DNA of 64,000 nucleotides from positions 52,762,001 through 52,826,000 of the forward strand of contig OZ024743.1 of the NCBI GenBank assembly GCA_964016885.1, given 5' to 3'. Positions within the stretch are counted from its first letter, which is position 1. Each line of letters starts with the position of its first letter. Shown in pieces: positions 6,626-64,000 of the stretch. The stretch is from Eledone cirrhosa (Eukaryota). Made by a program: the position numbers and the translations under genes. Below the pieces are notes generated by a model that worked only from the letters and a program-made list of their open reading frames with translations, was not told the DNA's origin and made no database searches.

Positions 6626-6907
6626 ATATATTGTATTGTTTATTATACATTAAATATATATATATATGTATATAGTGAAATAAAATAACAAGGACGATTG
6701 GTTACTTCACTATAATACATCCTGTCTAGCTCTACATCTCGACACTGAAGTGAACCTAGACATCGAGTGCTCATCCGGGTGAACCTACAGTAACTCCAAG
6801 TTACACTCCCTGGATATATATATATATATATATATATTGTTATACTTTGGGAGGGTCATGTTGCCACGATTTCAGATAAAGAATCTTGCTAAACAAATTC
6901 AGAAACG

Positions 6908-6953
<46 letters not shown>

Positions 6954-7188
6954 GACTGACGCTTAAACAATTAAGTTAAAAATGTACATCCACATATGTA
7001 TACTGAAATACTAGTATGCATATGAATACACACACGTGTACATATGTAGATGTACCGAGTTTTTCACTGGACACTTTACTGTGAGTGTTCAGCTATTCTG
7101 TATGTAAACACACAGACAAACCGGTTTTTAGAGTCATACTGGTTTTCGAGGAAACACCTTTCCTCTATTCTCCAGAAAGCCAGACAGG

Positions 7189-7233
7189 AATATTGGACTA
7201 GTTTCGATGTTGCTACATCTCATCAGCAATATT
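7189..7233 (-). ncRNA. Type I HHR (family A, inverted copy)
   Basis: Minus: AATATTG-CTGATGA-GATGT agca ACATC-GAAA-CTAG-TC-CAATATT. Confidence 0.93.
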
Positions 7234-7625
7234 TACCTATCCTCCGGCCTTTCTAGAGAATCGTAAAAGCACATATCGTTATATGCTTTTTCTATGAAAA
7301 TTAGTAGTGGGCAGACTAATTTGCATAGAGCGTGAGTACGAAAACCAGTATGACTCTAAAAACCGGTTTGTCTGTGTGTTTACATACAGAATAGCTGAAC
7401 ACTCACAGTAAAGTGTCCAGTGAAAAACTCGGTACATCTACATATGTACACGTGTGTGTATTCATATGCATACTAGTATTTCAGTATACATATGTGGATG
7501 TACATTTTTAACTTAATTGTTTAAGCGTCAGTCATACAAAAGTGAGTTACAAACGAAGCGAAATTTAATTTCGTTTCGTTATTTGTTTTTATCGTCTCCG
7601 CTGAACCGGTACGTACTCACGCTCT

Positions 7626-7633
7626 ATGCAAAT
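7626..7633 (+). promoter_or_regulatory. Octamer ATGCAAAT in each family A unit (also 8091-8098, 8555-8562, minus 7319-7326)
   Basis: Exact POU-factor octamer 100 nt upstream of the HHR core. Conserved in family B. Function is inferred. Confidence 0.5.
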
Positions 7634-7718
7634 TAGTCTGCCCACTACTAATTTTCATAGAAAAAGCATATAACGATATGTGCTTTTACGATTCTCTAGA
7701 AAGGCCGGAGGATAGGTA

Positions 7719-7763
7719 AATATTGCTGATGAGATGTAACAACATCGAAACTAATCCAATATT
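7719..7763 (+). ncRNA. Type I HHR (family A copy 1; stem III CTAG changed to CTAA)
   Basis: AATATTG-CTGATGA-GATGT aaca ACATC-GAAA-CTAA-TC-CAATATT. Confidence 0.88.
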
Positions 7764-8183
7764 CCTGTCTGGCTTTCTGGTGAATAGAGGAAAGGTGTTT
7801 CCTCGAAAACCAGTATGACTCTAAAAACCGGTTTGTCTGTGTGTTTACATACAGAATAGCTGAACACTCACAGTAAAGTGTCCAGTGAAAAACTCGGTAC
7901 ATCTACATATGTACACGTGTGTGTATTCATATGCATACTAGTATTTCAGTATACATATGTGGATGTACATTTTTAACTTAATTGTTTAAGCGTCAGTCAT
8001 ACAAAAGTGAGTTACAAACGAAGCGAAATTTAATTTCGTTTCGTTATTTGTTTTTATCGTCTCCGCTGAACCGGTACGTACTCACGCTCTATGCAAATTA
8101 GTCTGCCCACTACTAATTTTCATAGAAAAAGCATATAACGATATGTGCTTTTACGATTCTCTAGAAAGGCCGGAGGATAGGTA

Positions 8184-8228
8184 AATATTGCTGATGAGAT
8201 GTAACAACATCGAAACTAGTCCAATATT
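8184..8228 (+). ncRNA. Type I HHR (family A copy 2), predicted cleavage after GUC at 8221
   Basis: AATATTG-CTGATGA-GATGT aaca ACATC-GAAA-CTAG-TC-CAATATT. Confidence 0.95.
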
Positions 8229-8647
8229 CCTGTCTGGCTTTCTGGTGAATAGAGGAAAGGTGTTTCCTCGAAAACCAGTATGACTCTAAAAACCGGTTTG
8301 TCTGTGTGTTTACATACAGAATAGCTGAACACTCACAGTAAAGTGTCCAGTGAAAAACTCGGTACATCTACATATGTACACGTGTGTGTATTCATATGCA
8401 TACTAGTATTTCAGTATACATATGTGGATGTACATTTTTAACTTAATTGTTTAAGCGTCAGTCATACAAAAGTGAGTTACAAACGAAGCGAAATTTAATT
8501 TCGTTCGTTATTTGTTTTTATCGTCTCCGCTGAACCGGTACGTACTCACGCTCTATGCAAATTAGTCTGCCCACTACTAATTTTCATAGAAAAAGCATAT
8601 AACGATATGTGCTTTTACGATTCTCTAGAAAGGCCGGAGGATAGGTA

Positions 8648-8692
8648 AATATTGCTGATGAGATGTAACAACATCGAAACTAGTCCAATATT
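8648..8692 (+). ncRNA. Type I HHR (family A copy 3), predicted cleavage after 8685
   Basis: Identical to copy 2. Confidence 0.95.
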
Positions 8693-9199
8693 CCTGTCTG
8701 GCTTTCTGGTGAATAGAGGAAAGGTGTTTCCTCGAAAACCAGTATGACTCTAAAAACCGGTTTGTCTGTGTGTTTACATACAGAATAGCTGAACACTCAC
8801 AGTAAAGTGTCCAGTGAAAAACTCGGTACATCTACATATGTACACGTGTGTGTATTCATATGCATACTAGTATTTCAGTATACATATGTGGATGTACATT
8901 TTTAACTTAATTGTTTAAGCGTCAGTCATACAAAAGTGAGTTACAAACGAAGCGAAATTTAATTTCGTTTCGTTATTTGTATATATATATGCATGTATGT
9001 ATATACCTTGGCAGTTTTCCTATCAATCATGTAAGCCGACCAAGTAAATAAACTAATGTGAAGGAGTTTTGCAGAAATACTGTTTGAGTATATTTGTTGT
9101 GAAGAGGTAATGTTTATATCTAAATGTTAGTGTTTCACTTAAACAGTTGTTAATACCTTGTAGTGTTTGTAATATCAACATTTTCACAGACATATATAA

Positions 9200-11976: not shown

Positions 11977-12239
11977 ATAGATATATATATGTATATATAG
12001 AGAGAGAGAGAGAGTGAGAGAGAGAGTAGTATAATATCCGTAAAAAATGGTGAGACGTATAGTAAAGAATATTTAATTTACTAATTACTTGATTACAACA
12101 TTTTATGTAAATATGTTTGAATACTCGAGTTTTCCTTGACTTTCTCCCTCCATTACGACCATCGCCATATTTCATTTAACATTCATTTAAATCAATTGTA
12201 ATAATTTTCTTTAATCCTTATCAAACATATATTTATTAT

Positions 12240-12604
12240 TAGCAGTATCGGTAGAGGGTCGGACGCCATGCTTTGCAGCATAGTTACGTCCCTTTACGAT
12301 CTGAGTTCAAATCCCGCCGAGGTTGACTTTGCCTTTCATCCTTACGGGGTCGATAAAATAAAGTACCAGTAATGCACTGGGTAATTGCTGGCCTTGTGCC
12401 TAAAGTAGAAACAATTATTAGCAGTATCGGTAGAGGGTCGGACGCCATGTTTTGCAGCAAATGGTTACGGCCCTTTATGGTCCGAGTTGAAATCCCGCCG
12501 AGGTTAACTTTGCCTTTCATCCTTACGGGGTCGATAAAACCAAGTACCAGTAATACACTGGCATAATTGCTGGCCTTGTGCCAAAAGTAGAAACAATTAT
12601 ATTA
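12240..12604 (+). mobile_element. Tandem dimer of the tRNA-type SINE
   Basis: Two ~180-bp copies with an A-box-like GGTAGAGGGTCGG, B-box GAGTTCAAATCC, core CCTTTCATCCTTACGGGGTCGATAAA and an ATT tail. Confidence 0.9.
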
Positions 12605-14814: not shown

Positions 14815-15713
14815 TAATTGTGTATGGTTGATGGTATATTTAGTCAGTTTCTACACGCTGTCGAAATGTTGGATAAATACTCTATTGGGGCCACCGCGAA
14901 GAGGCCGCTTTCGGTTATTTGTCGGAAATTTCTTCATAAGAGCCTTTATTCTTATAGCTTGGTCTAATTGATTTTTTATATGGTTAATTATGCTAATTGG
15001 GAGAGGAAATGGTATATATTTTATCTAATAATTCTAAGGACATGATTTATGATATATTGCTCTGATTATTTAGTTTATTAATTCTTCATAGAGCTACAAC
15101 GTGACCGGTTGCAACATATATATCTATGACTTTATGTTTATGTATATGTAAACCTTTATATTTAATAATCTCCCGATAGGTTGAGATACAATTGGGTGAT
15201 ATTAGGCTGCGCTTTTTAGCAACAAGCCTACCTGCCGTAAGCAACTCATCACATTCTTTCTAACTTGACCACTGCAACGTCACGATTCTTAGCCATTTTT
15301 TAATCTATTTTTGGCGCGATCACTTTGGAAAACTAAATGTCTAATTTTGAATTTGTCTCCTGATGAATCCGATACTCCAGACATATCCTATTAATTGGAC
15401 GTCTAAAAATACGGATGAAACCATGGTAGAGATATAATTACGGTATGTACACATTTCTTCTAAGTTTGAATTTGCACCTAATTGTGTATGGTTGATGGTA
15501 TATTTAGTCAGTTTCTACACGCTGTCGAAATGTTGGATAAATACTCTATTGGGGCCACCGCGAAGAGGCCGCTTTCGGTTATTTGTCGGAAATTTCTTCA
15601 TAAGAGCCTTTATTCTTATAGCTTGGTCTAATTGATTTTTTATATGGTTAATTATGCTAATTGGGAGAGGAAATGGTATATATTTTATCTAATAATTCTA
15701 AGGACATGATTTA

Positions 15714-28796: not shown

Positions 28797-29400
28797 GGAA
28801 TAGAATGAAACGAAATTTCTCATTCTTAGTACGGCAGTTACGGCATTATAATAAATGTTCGGTAAACCGATACGTGCATATATATATATGTGTGTGCATG
28901 TATGTATATATATAAATATTACTGTACGTCTGTATACATATATCTATGTACGTATACATACACACATACTTACATTTAAGTGCCGTACTAAGAGTGAGAA
29001 ATGAAATTTCGTTTCATTCTATTCAATTTATCGTTTTCGGTGTGCCCGGCCGACTAAACTCACTCGATATGCAAATTAGGCTGCTCAGCCGTTAATATAC
29101 ATAAGGAAAGTATATACTTTCAGACGTTCAACCATCTGGCAGGAAGGTATACGATGCTGACGATAGCTAATATGCTTGAAACTAGTACATCGTTCCTGTG
29201 TCAGTATTGAACAAAAAGGTGACGTGGTTGCCTAAACACTGTACGGCGTAATTCGGGCTGTTTGTTTGTTTACAAACAAACCGAGCATTATAATAAATGT
29301 TCGGTAAACCGATACGTACATATATATATGTGTGCATGTATGTATATATATACATACAACTGTACGTCTGTATACATATATGTATGTACATACATACATA

Positions 29401-34482: not shown

Positions 34483-42660
<8,178 letters not shown>

Positions 42661-46149: not shown

Positions 46150-49100
46150 TGTGCTGGTGGTATGTGGGGGGGTGTACTATATGGTGGTGTATGGTGGTGG
46201 TATGTGGTGGTGTGTACTATATGGTGGTGTATGGGGGTGTATGGTGGTGTATGGTGGTATATAGTGGTATATGGTGGTGTATGGTGGTATATGGTGGTGT
46301 ATGGTGGTATATGGTGGTATATGGTGGTATATGGTGGTATATGGTGGTGTATGGTGGTATATGGTGGTATATGGTGGTATATGGTGGTGTATGGTGGCAT
46401 ATGATGGTATGTGGTGGTGTATGGTGGTATATGGTGGTGTATGGTGGTATATGGTGGTATATGGTGGTATATGGTGGTATATGGTGGTGTATGGTGGTAT
46501 ATGGTGGTATATGGTGGTATATGGTGGTGTATGGTGGTGTATGGTGGTGAATGGTGGTGGTATGTAGTGGTGTGTACTATATGGTGGTGTATGGTGGTGT
46601 ATGGAAGTGTATGGTGGTATATGGCGGTGTATGGTGGTATATGATGGTATATGGTAGTATATGGTAGTGTATGGTGGTATATGGTGATATATGGTGGTGT
46701 ATAGTGGTGTATGGTGGTATATGGTGGTGTATGGTGGTATATGGTGGTATATGGTGGTGTATGGTGGTGTATGGTGATGTATGGTGGTGTATGGTGGTAT
46801 ATAGTGGTATGTGGTGGTGTATGGTGGTGGTATATGGTGGTGGTATATGGTAGTGTATGGTGGTGTGTGGTGGTATATGGTGATGTATGGTGGTATATAG
46901 TGGTATGTGGTGGTGTATGGTGGTGGTATATGGTGGTGTATGGTGGTGTGTGGTGGTATATGGTGGTATATGGTGGTGTATGGTGGTGTATAGTGGTATA
47001 TGTTGGTATATGGTGGTATATGGTGGTATATGGTGGTATATGGTGGTGTGTGGTGGTATATGGTGATGTATGGTGGTATATAGTGGTATGTGGTGGTGTA
47101 TGGTGGTGGTATATGGTGGTGTATGGTGGTGTGTGGTGGTATATGGTGGTATATGGTGGTGTATGGTGGTGTATAGTGGTATATGTTGGTATATGGTGGT
47201 ATATGGTGGTATATGGTGGTATATGGTGGTATATGGGTGTGTATGGTGTTGGTATATGGTGGCGTATAGTGTTATATAGTGGTGTATGGTGGTATATGGT
47301 GGCGTATGGTGGTGTATGGTGGTATATGGTGGAATATGGTGGTATATGGTGGTGTATGGTTGTGTATGGTGGTGGTATATGGTGGTATATGGTATATGGT
47401 ATATGGTATATGGTATATGGTGGTGTATGGTGTTATATGTTGGTGTATGGTGGTATATGATGGTATATGGTGGTGGTATATGGTGGTATGTGGTGATGTA
47501 TGGTGGTATATGGTGGTGTATGGTGGTGTGTGGTGGTGGTATATGGTGGTGGTATATGGTGGTGTATGGTGGTATATAGTGTATATGGTGGTGTATGGTG
47601 ATGTATGGTGATGACATATGGTGGTATATGGTGGTATATGGTGGTGTAAGGTGGTATATGGCGGTATATGGTGGTGTATGGTGGTGGTATATGGTGGTAT
47701 ATGGTGGTATATGGTGGTGTATGGTGGTATATGGTGGTATATGGTGGTATATGGTGGTGGTATATGGTGGTGGTATATGGCGGTATATGTTGGTATATCG
47801 TGGTATATGTTGGTGTATGGTGGTATATGGTGGTATATGGTGGTGGCATATGATGGTATGTGATGGTGTATGGTGGTATATGGTGGTATATGGTGGTATA
47901 TGGTGGTATATGATGGTGTATGGTGGTATATGGTGGTGGTATATGGTGGTATATGGTGGTGTATGGTGGTGGTATATGGTGGTATGTGGTGGTGTATGTT
48001 GGTATATGGTGGTATATGGCGGTATATGGTGGTATATTGTGGTAGTATATGGTGGTATATGGTGGTATATGGTGGTATATGGTCGTGTATGGTGGTGTAT
48101 GGTGGCATATGTTGGTGTATGGTGGTGTATGGTGGTATATGGTGGTGTATGTTGGTGGCATATGATGGTATGTGGTGGTGTATGGTGGTATATGGTGGTG
48201 TATGGTGGTATATGGTGGTATATGGTGGTATATGGTGGTATATGGTGGTGTATGGTGGTATATGGTGGTATATGGTGGTATATGGTGGTGTATGGTGGTG
48301 TATGGTGGTGAATGGTGGTGGTATGTAGTGGTGTGTACTATATGGTGGTGTATGGTGGTGTATGGTGGTGTATGGAAGTGTATGGTGGTATATGGCGGTG
48401 TATGGTGGTATATGATGGTATATGGTAGTATATGGTAGTGTATGGTGGTATATGGTGGTATATGGTGGTGTATAGTGGTGTATGGTGGTATATGGTGGTG
48501 TATGGTGGTATATGGTGGTATATGGTGGTGTATGGTGGTGTATGGTGATGTATGGTGGTGTATGGTGGTATATAGTGGTATGTGGTGGTGCATGGTGGTG
48601 GTATATGGTGGTGGTATATGGTAGTGTATGGTGGTGTGTGGTGGTATATGGTGATGTATGGTGGTATATAGTGGTATGTGGTGGTGTATGGTGGTGGTAT
48701 ATGGTGGTGTATGGTGGTGTGTGGTGGTATATGGTGGTTTATGTTGGTATATGGTGGTGTATAGTGGTATATGTTGGTATATGGTGGTATATGGTGGTAT
48801 ATGGTGGTATATGGGTGTGTATGGTGTTGGTATATGGTGGCGTATAGTGTTATATATTGGTGTATGGTGGTATATGGTGGTGTATGGTGGTGTATGGTGG
48901 TATATGGTGGAATATGGTGGTATATGGTGGTGTATGGTTGTGTATGGTGGTGGTATATGGTGGTATATAGTATATGGTATATGGTATATGGTGGTGTATG
49001 GTGTTATATGTTGGTGTATGGTGGTATATGATGGTATATGGTGGTGGTATATGGTGGTATGTGGTGATGTATGGTGGTATATGGTGGTGTATGGTGGTGT

Positions 49101-51100
49101 GTGGTGGTGGTATATGGTGGTGGTATATGGTGGTGTATGGTGGTATATAGTGTATATGGTGGTGTATGGTGATGTATGGTGATGACATATGGTGGTATAT
49201 GGTGGTATATGGTGGTGTAAGGTGGTATATGGAGGTATATGGTGGTGTATGGTGGTGGTATATGGTGGTATATGGTGGTATATGGTGGTGTATGGTGGTA
49301 TATGGTGGTATATGGTGGTATATGGTGGTGGTATATGGTGGTGGTATATGGCGGTATATGTTGGTATATCGTGGTATATGTTGGTGTATGGTGGTATATG
49401 GTGGTATATGGTGGTGGCATATGATGGTATGTGATGGTGTATGGTGGTATATGGTGGTATATGGTGGTATATGGTGGTATATGATGGTGTATGGTGGTAT
49501 ATGGTGGTGTATGGTGGTGGTATATGGTGGTATGTGGTGGTGTATGTTGGTATATGGTGGTATATGGCGGTATATGGTGGTATATGGTGGTAGTATATGG
49601 TGGTATATGGTGGTATATGGTGGTATATGGTCGTGTATGGTGGTGTATGGTGGCATATGTTGGTGTATGGTGGTGTATGGTGGTATAAGGTGGTGTATGT
49701 TGGTGGCATATGATGGTATGTGGTGGTGTATGGTGGTATATGGTGGTATATGGTGGTATATGGTGGTATATGATGGTGTATGGTGGTATATGGTGGTATA
49801 TGGTGGTGTATGGTGGTGGTATATGGTGGTATGTGGTGGTGTATGGTGGTATATGGTGGTATATGGCGGTATATGGTGGTATATGGTGGTAGTATATGGT
49901 GGTATATGGTGGTATATGGTGGTATATGGTTGTGTATGGGGGTGTATGGTGGTGTATGGTGGTGTATGGTGGTGTATAGTGGTATATGTTGGTATATGAT
50001 GGTATATGGTGGTGTAAGGTGGTGGTTTATGGTGATCTATGGTGGTATATCGTGGTGTATGGTTGTGTATGGTGGTGTATCGTGATGTATGGTGGTGTAT
50101 CGTGGTGTATCGTGGTGCATGGTAGTGTGTGGTGGTATATGGTGGTGGTATATGGTGGTATATGGTGGTATATGGTGATATATGGTGGTATATGTTGGTA
50201 TATGATGGTATATGGTGGCGTATGGTGGTATATGGTTGTATATGGTATTATATGGTGGTGTATGGTGGTATATGGTGGTATTATATGGTGGTATATGGTT
50301 GTATATGGTATTATATGGTGGTGTATGGTGGAATATGGTGGTATTATATGGTGGTATATGGTGTTGTATGGTGGTGTATGGTAGTGGTATATGGTGGTAT
50401 ATGGTATATGGTGGTATATGGTTGTGTATGGTGGTATATGGTGGTGGTATATGGTGGTATGTGGTGGTGTATGGTGGTATATGGTGGTGTATGGTGGTAT
50501 ATGGTGTATATGGTGGTGTATGGTGGTATATGGTGGTGTATGGTGGTGTATGGTTGTGTATGGTGGTATATGGTGGTATATGGTGGTATATGGTGTTGTT
50601 TGGTGGTGTATGGTGGTGTATGGTGGTATATGGTGTTGTTTGGTGGTGTATGGTGGTGTATGGTGGTGGTATATGGTGGTATATGGTATATGGTGGTATA
50701 TGGTGGTGTATGGTGTTATATGGTGGTGTATGTTGGTGTATGGTGGTATATGGTGGTATATGGTGGTGGTATATGGTGGTATGTGGTGGTGTATGGTGGT
50801 ATATGGTGTATATGGTGGTGTATGATGGTGTATGGTGGTATATGGTGGTGTATTGTGGTGTATGGTTGTGTATGGTGGTATATGGTGGTGTATGGTGGTA
50901 TATGGTGGTGTATGGTGGTGTATGTTGGTGTATGGTGGTGTATGTTGGTGTATGGTGGTATATGGTGGTATATGGTGGTGGTATATGGTGGTATGTGGTG
51001 GTGTATGGTGGTATATGGTGGTGTATGGTGGTATATGGTGGTATATGGTGGTATATGGTGGTATATGGTGGTGTATGGTGGTGTATGGTGGTGGTATATG
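46150..51100. repeat. ~5-kb 10-bp satellite (TATGGTGGTR)n with kb-scale internal duplication
   Basis: Rare variants recur, e.g. GAATGGTGGTGGTATGTAGTGG at ~46549 and ~48310, GATGACATATG at ~47610 and ~49181. Confidence 0.95.
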
Positions 51101-63488: not shown

Positions 63489-64000
63489 CCGTACGGCTTA
63501 ATTCGATGTTTGTTTACAAACACACCGAGCATTATAATAAATGTTCGGTGAATCCATACGTACATATATATATGTGTGCATGTATGTATATATATATATA
63601 TATACATACTACTATACGTCTGTATACATATATGTATGTACGTATATATACTTATATTTAAGTAACAGCCGTACTAAGAGTGAGAAATGAAATTTCGTTT
63701 CATTTTTTCCGTTTATCGTTTTCGGGGCGCCCGGCCGATTAACTCACTCGATATGCAAATTAGGCTGCTCAGCCGTTAATATGCATAAGGAAAGTATATA
63801 CTTTCAGACGTTCAATCATCTGGCAGGAAGGTATACGTTGCTGACGATAGCTAATAAGCTTGAAATTAGTACAGCGTTCCTTTGTCAGTGTTGAACAAAT
63901 GAGCAACGATGGTTGCTAGACACTGTACGGCTTAATTCGGGATGTTTGTTTACAAACACACCGAGCATTATAATAAATGTTCGGTGAATCCATACGTACA
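63489..64000 (+). mobile_element. Family B array (436-bp period), continues beyond the window; HHR 63835-63877, octamer 63753-63760
   Basis: CCGAGCATTA at 63525 and 63961. ACGTTG-CTGACGA-TAGC taataa GCTT-GAAA-TTAG-TA-CAGCGT. Confidence 0.9.

Follow-up and report, generated by a model that had tools for sequence, protein, structure and literature searches.

The tandem repeats with hammerhead ribozymes (retrozymes) in a 64,000-nt stretch of Eledone cirrhosa contig OZ024743.1 (hereafter the window; the genome comprises 3.0 Gb in 1,796 contigs) carry, upstream of the ribozyme, a conserved block whose central 12-mer, TATGCAAATTAG, is shared with the promoters of the host U6, U6atac and RNase MRP genes. 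On the evidence of this match, the block is best read as the host proximal promoter element of the RNA polymerase III class rather than as an octamer enhancer of the distal type. The block and the TATA-like box that follows it would make each repeat unit a self-promoted transcription unit, which we predict to be read by polymerase III. We regard this interpretation as somewhat probable, and the evidence for and against it is presented below.

Two families of hammerhead repeats

Two families of such repeats, A and B, occur in the window, and pattern searches show that retrozyme arrays are also found elsewhere in the genome. Their units are 465-484 nt long, and the longest open reading frame (ORF) starting with ATG across a trimer of units encodes 64-112 amino acids. 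The copies in the window and the hammerheads of family A are located as follows:

7339..8980, + strand: family A tandem array, 3.5 units of 465 nt, 99% alike (Tandem Repeats Finder)
6951..7340, - strand: inverted, 5'-truncated family A copy, head-to-head with the array (blastn to the unit), which has a block (7316-7327) and a hammerhead (7174-7244) of its own
~28960-29330, and ~63560 to the window end: family B copies, core CTGACGA
7708..7778, 8173-8243 and 8637-8707, + strand: type I hammerhead ribozymes of family A (Rfam Hammerhead_HH9, 29.4-34.2 bits)
7726, 8191 and 8655: hammerhead core CTGATGAG in the family A units
after 7756, 8221 and 8685: predicted cleavage sites of the family A hammerheads

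Every A and B unit carries a predicted type I hammerhead ribozyme, which combines the conserved CTGAYGA...GAAAC...GTH core with a very short stem III and a stem I that closes the fold. Six stem I/II pairs exhibit compensatory changes between A and B in a 12-copy alignment. The HH9 scores of the family A hammerheads (29.4-34.2 bits) lie below the Rfam gathering score of 52, and nothing in the window matched Rfam at gathering scores. At E values up to 1, only the family A hammerheads matched, below threshold, while no match was obtained for family B or for family C (a further repeat of the window, considered at the end).

Two other organisms each provide one contig of 495 or 496 nt (465 + 30), which we compared with window positions 7560-8500. 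Both are 97% alike to the window in sequence, with TATGCAAATTGG as their variant of the block; their lengths fit a closed unit as well as a tandem arrangement. The contigs of four sequencing runs revealed no starts, ends or joints, and contigs are in any case unable to show starts. The first hammerhead of the array shows a G to A change at 7754, through which GAAACTAGTC reads TAATC and the two-pair stem III is weakened. The corresponding position is a G in other hammerhead copies and in the contigs of the other organisms.

A conserved block upstream of the hammerhead

The block reads ACTCAC-N4-TATGCAAATTAG-N-CTGC-N-CA in family A, and its 12-mer was found at the following positions of the window:

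7612..7650, 8077-8115 and 8541-8579, + strand: block in the family A units
7625..7636, 8090-8101 and 8554-8565, + strand: 12-mer TATGCAAATTAG of family A, matching the -78 element of a U6 gene (locus L032) at 12/12 positions and read as a proximal promoter element
7316-7327, - strand: 12-mer TATGCAAATTAG of the inverted family A copy, absent from the list of the original prediction
29068..29079, + strand: family B 12-mer, core CTGACGA at 29157, predicted cleavage after 29187
63752..63763, + strand: second family B 12-mer, core at 63841

All six exact copies of TATGCAAATTAG in the window fall within family A or B hammerhead repeats. When up to two mismatches are allowed, the window contains 22 matches to the 12-mer, against 9.40 +/- 3.33 expected, and none of 100 shuffles reached this number. 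The original prediction, made on this DNA from its letters alone, had described an octamer block common to A and B, 100 and 88 nt before the catalytic core. Coordinates and distances are both borne out, as the interval from octamer start to CTGAYGA core is 100 nt in A (7626 to 7726) and 88 nt in B (29069 to 29157). Genome-wide, the pattern ACTCAC-N4-TATGCAAATTAG-N-CTGC has 22,038 exact matches and its reversed control none; an 18-base pattern over the 3' half of the hammerhead has 18,452.

Between A and B, 180 of the 371 comparable columns are invariant in an alignment of nine copies, including all of ACTCAC, the 12-mer and CTGC. The longest invariant run is the 12-mer itself, followed by AATTTCGTTT (10 nt), TTATCGT (7 nt) and ACTCAC (6 nt). 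As the block pattern itself had served to fetch four of these nine rows, we drew a second sample of 53 independent copies through the hammerhead alone, the block not being used. The exact 12-mer is in place in 35 of these copies and carries one substitution in three others, and the remaining 15 are truncated or rearranged before the block.

Variation along the unit was assessed as the mean minor-base fraction in the 31 hammerhead-anchored B copies that span the block, with offsets counted from block start. It is lowest in the block (0.005) and in the TATA-like box (0.012), stands at 0.038 between them (offsets 12-41), and rises to 0.079 at offsets 50-69 and to 0.124 at offsets 70-99 (which include the 5' half of the ribozyme). 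In this sample, which was taken without reference to the block, the 12-mer ties as the least variable 12-nt stretch, and the stretch from block to TATA-like box is the least variable part. The block is therefore more conserved than its flanks (0.005 versus 0.038-0.124), as the original prediction had supposed of the octamer.

The block precedes host U6, U6atac and RNase MRP genes

We located the U6, U1, U2, 7SK, RNase MRP, U6atac, RNase P, U5 and U4 genes genome-wide with Rfam models and read their upstream regions. Five independent host genes carry the 12-mer, or a close variant of it, at nearly the same distance from the gene:

U6, contig C5 (locus L031): 12-mer TATGCAAATGAG, first T at -77
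U6, contig C9 (locus L032): 12-mer TATGCAAATTAG, first T at -78
U6 tandem array, contig C19: 12-mer TATGCTAATTAG, first T at -79
U6atac, best copy: 12-mer TATGGAAATTAG, first T at -78
RNase MRP, single gene: 12-mer TATGCAAATGAG, first T at -78

The repeat block is thus identical to the element of U6 L032 (12/12) and differs at one position from those of U6 L031, the U6 array, U6atac and MRP (11/12 each). In all five genes, the TATA box starts 47-49 nt past the first T of the 12-mer and the annotated +1 lies 77-79 nt past it, and the genes end with T5 to T10 runs (runs of five to ten T residues).

The genes of the other small nuclear RNAs (snRNAs) present a different picture. None of the 12 U1, 12 U2, 10 U5 and 10 U4 loci has the block upstream of its own gene, and AATCAGTG-type motifs are found in its place, at -55 to -59. 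The lone block match among these 44 loci belongs to a retrozyme A copy located ~1.3 kb upstream of a U1 gene (L061). Searching both strands of 229,610 bases of snRNA loci with a degenerate 12-mer returned 22 matches: 20 before U6, U6atac or MRP copies, one upstream of a U6-like copy, one in the retrozyme A copy and none elsewhere. Comparison with the upstream regions of host U1, U2 and U6 genes, which had been proposed as a check of the original prediction, thus shows that the block is shared with U6 and not with U1 or U2. It is because the block stands before U6, U6atac and MRP at -77 to -79, and is absent from U1, U2, U4 and U5, that we read it as a proximal element of the polymerase III class.

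The host seems to possess two classes of proximal element, namely AATCAGTG-type (U1, U2, U4, U5, RNase P and a weak 7SK match) and TATGCAAATKAG at -77 to -79 (U6, U6atac and MRP). A further motif, TTACCTCCCTTGA, is common to U1, U2, U6 and RNase P at about -260 to -290, and is a better candidate for the host distal element than the block. The two proximal classes and the shared distal motif provide a first outline of the snRNA promoter grammar of this host.

Some other features of the host promoters were observed. The AATCAGTG-type motif lies at about -63 to -67 in RNase P and in the weak 7SK match, and TATA-like boxes are found near -30 in both classes. In six of the 16 fetched copies of the U6 array on C19 (L037, L038 and L040-L043), an insertion of ~192 nt parts the promoter from the U6 coding region and shifts the -78 block to -271; this insertion looks like a tRNA-like short interspersed element (SINE) repeated at window positions 12235-12600. 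In Schistosoma japonicum, a U6 proximal element GTGCGAATGAGTTATTGAATG at -71 to -51, predicted by likeness and not dissected, is reported (PMC5460494), and it resembles the TGCAAATGAG of the Eledone host genes.

A polymerase II promoter is an alternative that has to be weighed against these results. The octamer would then be bound by Oct/POU factors and enhance polymerase II transcription of the array, in the style of newt satellite 2, with the proximal element elsewhere in the unit. The block does contain the canonical octamer ATGCAAAT, and T-runs do not stop polymerase II, so that multimeric transcripts and circles would easily be formed. Moreover, newt satellite 2 is a hammerhead satellite for which PMC2220036 and PMC6765202 report an snRNA-type polymerase II promoter. 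However, the 44 U1, U2, U4 and U5 loci lack the block (save for the retrozyme copy at L061), and its position in U6, U6atac and MRP is proximal, not distal. The conserved match also exceeds the octamer and spans the full 12-mer of the host polymerase III class genes, while the units contain neither the shared distal motif nor the host polymerase II class proximal motif (no match to AATCAGTG in the repeat units). We therefore find polymerase II transcription of this kind unlikely. Some 97 nt upstream of the block, family A has a sequence, GTCAGTCAT, that matches the polymerase II class motif; since B does not conserve it and its position relative to the block is on the wrong side, we attribute this match to chance.

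The proposal that the units carry their own snRNA-type promoter thus gains strong support from the comparison with host genes, though in modified form. The block corresponds to the host U6/U6atac/MRP element, whereas the expected layout, a distal octamer with a separate proximal sequence element, is not what we find, and the promoter activity itself is predicted from DNA sequence.

Unit layout and predicted transcription

A second conserved piece common to A and B, AAAG-N-ATATA, follows the block, and its core ATATA is invariant. The TATA-like boxes and the putative signals downstream of them are placed as follows:

7667..7674, 8132-8139 and 8596-8603, + strand: TATA-like box CATATAAC of family A, offsets 42-49 from block start
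29110-29117, + strand: TATA-like box GTATATAC of family B
63794-63801, + strand: TATA-like box of the second family B copy
7696..7704, 8161-8169 and 8625-8633, + strand: predicted start zone of family A, 71-79 nt after block start according to host geometry
29139-29147, + strand: predicted start zone of family B
8051..8055, + strand: T5 run, candidate polymerase III terminator, ~39 nt before the next block
7970-7974, + strand: further T5 run

Measured from the block, the predicted start falls at offset 77-79; with the end of the TATA-like box as reference, it falls at ~71. Both positions are in purine-rich sequence that immediately precedes the hammerhead. In all subfamilies, T-runs (T4 to T7) are concentrated 34-57 nt upstream of the next block (T4, T7 and T4 in one B unit; T5 in A), and the ~350-nt body is devoid of runs of at least four T in B and in one A subfamily. 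The order along the unit is block, TATA-like box, start zone, hammerhead, body and T-runs, and this predicted layout is that of an external polymerase III gene. An opposite-strand near-copy of the block, TATGAAAATTAG, has no TATA-like box at that distance.

Under the polymerase III interpretation, the block would be bound in the repeat by the same factor as in the host genes, and this external-type promoter would recruit polymerase III rather than polymerase II. Transcription would start ~70-80 nt downstream of the block, just before the hammerhead. Partial-tandem insertion may keep the upstream promoter heritable, the promoter of one unit driving the next unit, and the leader would then be removed by the hammerhead.

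Type 3 external polymerase III promoters (U6, 7SK, H1 and MRP) consist of a proximal element and a TATA box at a fixed distance, with transcription starting ~22-30 nt after the TATA box and ending at an oligo-T terminator. The Eledone repeat is similar to them in its proximal element and in the T-runs that follow its body. It differs from them in three respects: its TATA-like box, although conserved between A and B, is 4-5 nt closer to the proximal element than in the host genes; it has no distal element; and its putative promoter is located within a mobile repeat, where transcription from the preceding unit would include it.

Truncated copies offer a weak hint as to the start. For family B, 2,349 copies lack the G and C at block positions 4 and 5, and 50 breaks could be mapped from 60 fetched regions; 14 of these 50 breaks lie at offsets 69-79 (~5.2 expected). 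For family A, there are 375 such copies and 24 readable breaks, among those listed at offsets 64-122, nine of which lie at offsets 76-83 (~3.3 expected). The enrichment of breaks near the predicted start is real, but it is not unique.

Several observations weigh against polymerase III transcription of the units. First, the breaks cluster where the extended stem I of the hammerhead has its 5' edge, the cluster consists mostly of inverted junctions, and further break hot spots exist at offsets 20-22 and 86-91. Secondly, the TATA-like box starts 43-44 nt after block start, versus 47-49 nt in host genes, which leaves the spacing 4-5 nt, or about half a helical turn, short of host geometry. The host distal motif TTACCTCCCTTGA has no match on either strand of four representative units. 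In addition, RNase P and the weak 7SK match show an AATCAGT-type motif without the block; the block therefore does not mark every polymerase III gene of this class.

The T-runs raise difficulties of their own. Their scarcity in the body is weakly unusual (P 0.07-0.35 in shuffles). In the window, the T5 runs of family A are located at offsets 345 and 426, both before the second hammerhead. Polymerase III would be expected to stop at them, and it is difficult to see how unit-length circles, cut at two ribozymes, could then arise. In family B, insertions extend 7 nt past a T7 run, so some templates read through it. Finally, a predicted RNA hairpin has the block as one of its arms.

The block in the predicted RNA fold

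This hairpin was obtained by fold prediction:

7625..7659, + strand: hairpin with the 12-mer as 5' arm and ACTAATTTTCATA as 3' arm

The 12-mer pairs with TAAT..CATA, 10-20 nt downstream, in both the minimum-energy and the consensus folds. The 465-nt RNA as a whole (taken as a slice starting 6 nt upstream of the cleavage site) is highly paired: its minimum free energy is -152.7 kcal/mol, far below that of shuffled sequences (z = -8.97). Just downstream of the block hairpin lies another, which remains a hairpin in A and B despite their different sequences. All of this would suit a role of the block at the RNA level, as a hairpin arm serving for example as a site for a Penelope-like reverse transcriptase or for RNA stability, its likeness to a promoter being coincidental.

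We nonetheless consider such a role, taken as the whole explanation, to be improbable. The paired positions of the block hairpin never vary; hence they yield no compensatory evidence (0 compensatory pairs, against six in the hammerhead stems of the same alignment) and are in themselves neutral on structure. By contrast, the middle of the 3' arm varies (TTT, ATA or ATG) while the block stays fixed, and the CTGC that follows the block is conserved although it is part of a loop in A and of a stem in B. The block is therefore held by more than pairing. Furthermore, across ~459 kb of strand sequence, promoters and retrozymes aside, no background match to the degenerate 12-mer is seen, and a chance match at 12/12 positions is therefore improbable. 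Constraints from the promoter and from RNA pairing may both be acting on the block.

That the block is a relic, the A/B ancestor having captured part of a U6 or MRP-type promoter that persists inactive in young copies, appears very improbable: most genomic copies are indeed young and nearly identical, so that identity within a family says little, and the TATA spacing is off by 4-5 nt, but A and B differ at about half of their columns (180/371 invariant) and yet keep the 12-mer, the TATA-like core and their spacing, and across B subfamilies there is less variation between block and TATA-like box than in the 5' half of the ribozyme.

Comparison with other hammerhead repeats

Newt satellite 2, studied by Coats, Zhang and Epstein in 1994, is reportedly transcribed by polymerase II. 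Like this satellite, the Eledone repeats are tandem repeats of a few hundred nt with a type I hammerhead and a putative internal promoter composed of snRNA-gene elements, an octamer among them. In the newt promoter, a distal octamer stands apart from the proximal element. In Eledone, by contrast, the 12-mer that contains the octamer coincides with the element at -78 of the U6, U6atac and MRP genes, a TATA-like box comes after it, and there is no polymerase II class motif.

The Sm-alpha and Sj-alpha repeats of Schistosoma have a tRNA-like internal promoter. The Eledone signals are instead of the external U6 type, and ARAGORN found no tRNA-like gene in the family A region (6900-9100; A and B boxes were not searched separately). 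According to PMC6765202, which cites Ferbeyre et al. (1998), Sm-alpha and Sj-alpha are SINE-like hammerhead repeats with the ribozyme downstream of a polymerase III promoter, and they depend on being present in tandem. The Eledone repeats would share with them this order of promoter and hammerhead, the proposed use of polymerase III, transcription of a unit from the one upstream and the status of non-autonomous retroelement (PMC6765202).

Metazoan retrozymes without long terminal repeats (LTRs; Cervera and de la Pena 2020, PMC7229834) and the pseudo-LTRs (pLTRs) of Penelope-like elements (PMC8557442, PMC11167929) share several characters with the Eledone repeats: tandem units with a type I hammerhead, extensive pairing of the RNA, a very large number of copies and the lack of a long ORF. 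The likeness is known here from the DNA, circular RNA being a feature of those other systems, and the Eledone unit of 465-484 nt exceeds the range of roughly 170-400 nt reported for them. A 2026 preprint (bioRxiv 10.64898/2026.07.22.740005) argues that animal retrozymes derive from the pLTRs of Penelope-like elements.

Insertion signatures of the Penelope type are also present in Eledone. Penelope-like elements are described as often truncated at the 5' end, as accompanied by an inverted copy of their 5' part and as inserted into (TA)n (PMC8557442, PMC11167929). Similarly, 15 of the 53 hammerhead-anchored copies are truncated, the mapped junctions are mostly inverted joins, and (TA)n or other TA-rich DNA adjoins each of the 21 element 3' ends examined, which end in ..TTA. 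Such 3' ends fit insertion targeted to microsatellites with reverse transcription initiated internally, as described for Penelope-like elements, and therefore say nothing about an RNA 3' end or about termination. Head-to-head inverted repeat pairs with variable junctions are very common genome-wide.

We tentatively put forward, as a possibility for which we would claim rather little confidence, that animal retrozymes are to Penelope-like elements what SINEs are to long interspersed elements (LINEs), but with an external promoter copied from the host U6/MRP type and kept by partial-tandem insertion. If true, this would explain the abundance of retrozyme RNA in every tissue, and it predicts that the retrozymes of each species mimic the U6 proximal element of their own host. 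The retrozyme papers searched stress unusually high expression in all tissues and do not cover the mode of transcription. Word searches found no discussion of an animal retrozyme promoter in PMC7229834, where "promoter" occurs solely as T7 promoter, or in bioRxiv 10.64898/2026.07.22.740005, where the word is absent. A literature search joining hammerhead, polymerase III, retrozyme and promoter likewise gave nothing on topic, judging by titles and the opening lines of abstracts. A promoter copied from the housekeeping U6 and MRP genes would explain the high expression and would link retrozymes to the use of polymerase III by SINEs.

Family C and other repeats of the window

The original prediction had assigned to the same system a third family, C, with a variant of the block:

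14989..15000 and 15653-15664, + strand: family C variant TATGCTAATTGG, a two-mismatch match of a class expected by chance

While TATGCTAATTGG is present, family C does not share the geometry of A and B: its TATA-like run lies 23 nt on, against the ~48 nt expected, and is succeeded at once by a T4 run, and the core is 371 nt downstream. Family C was thus rejected as a third member.

Further hammerhead-like cores (CTGANGA...GAAA, with possible stems) are located outside A and B at 15360 (+), 1009 (-), 29647 (-), 45322 (-) and 44866 (+)/44777 (-). One pair of hammerhead-like cores carries ATGCAAAT inside the putative stem II region. The window also contains a (TGG)n stretch of ~5.5 kb at 36246-41743, which encloses a run of 262 G at 38213-38474, and a 10-nt repeat, TATATGGTGG, which extends over ~4.9 kb at 46178-51092.

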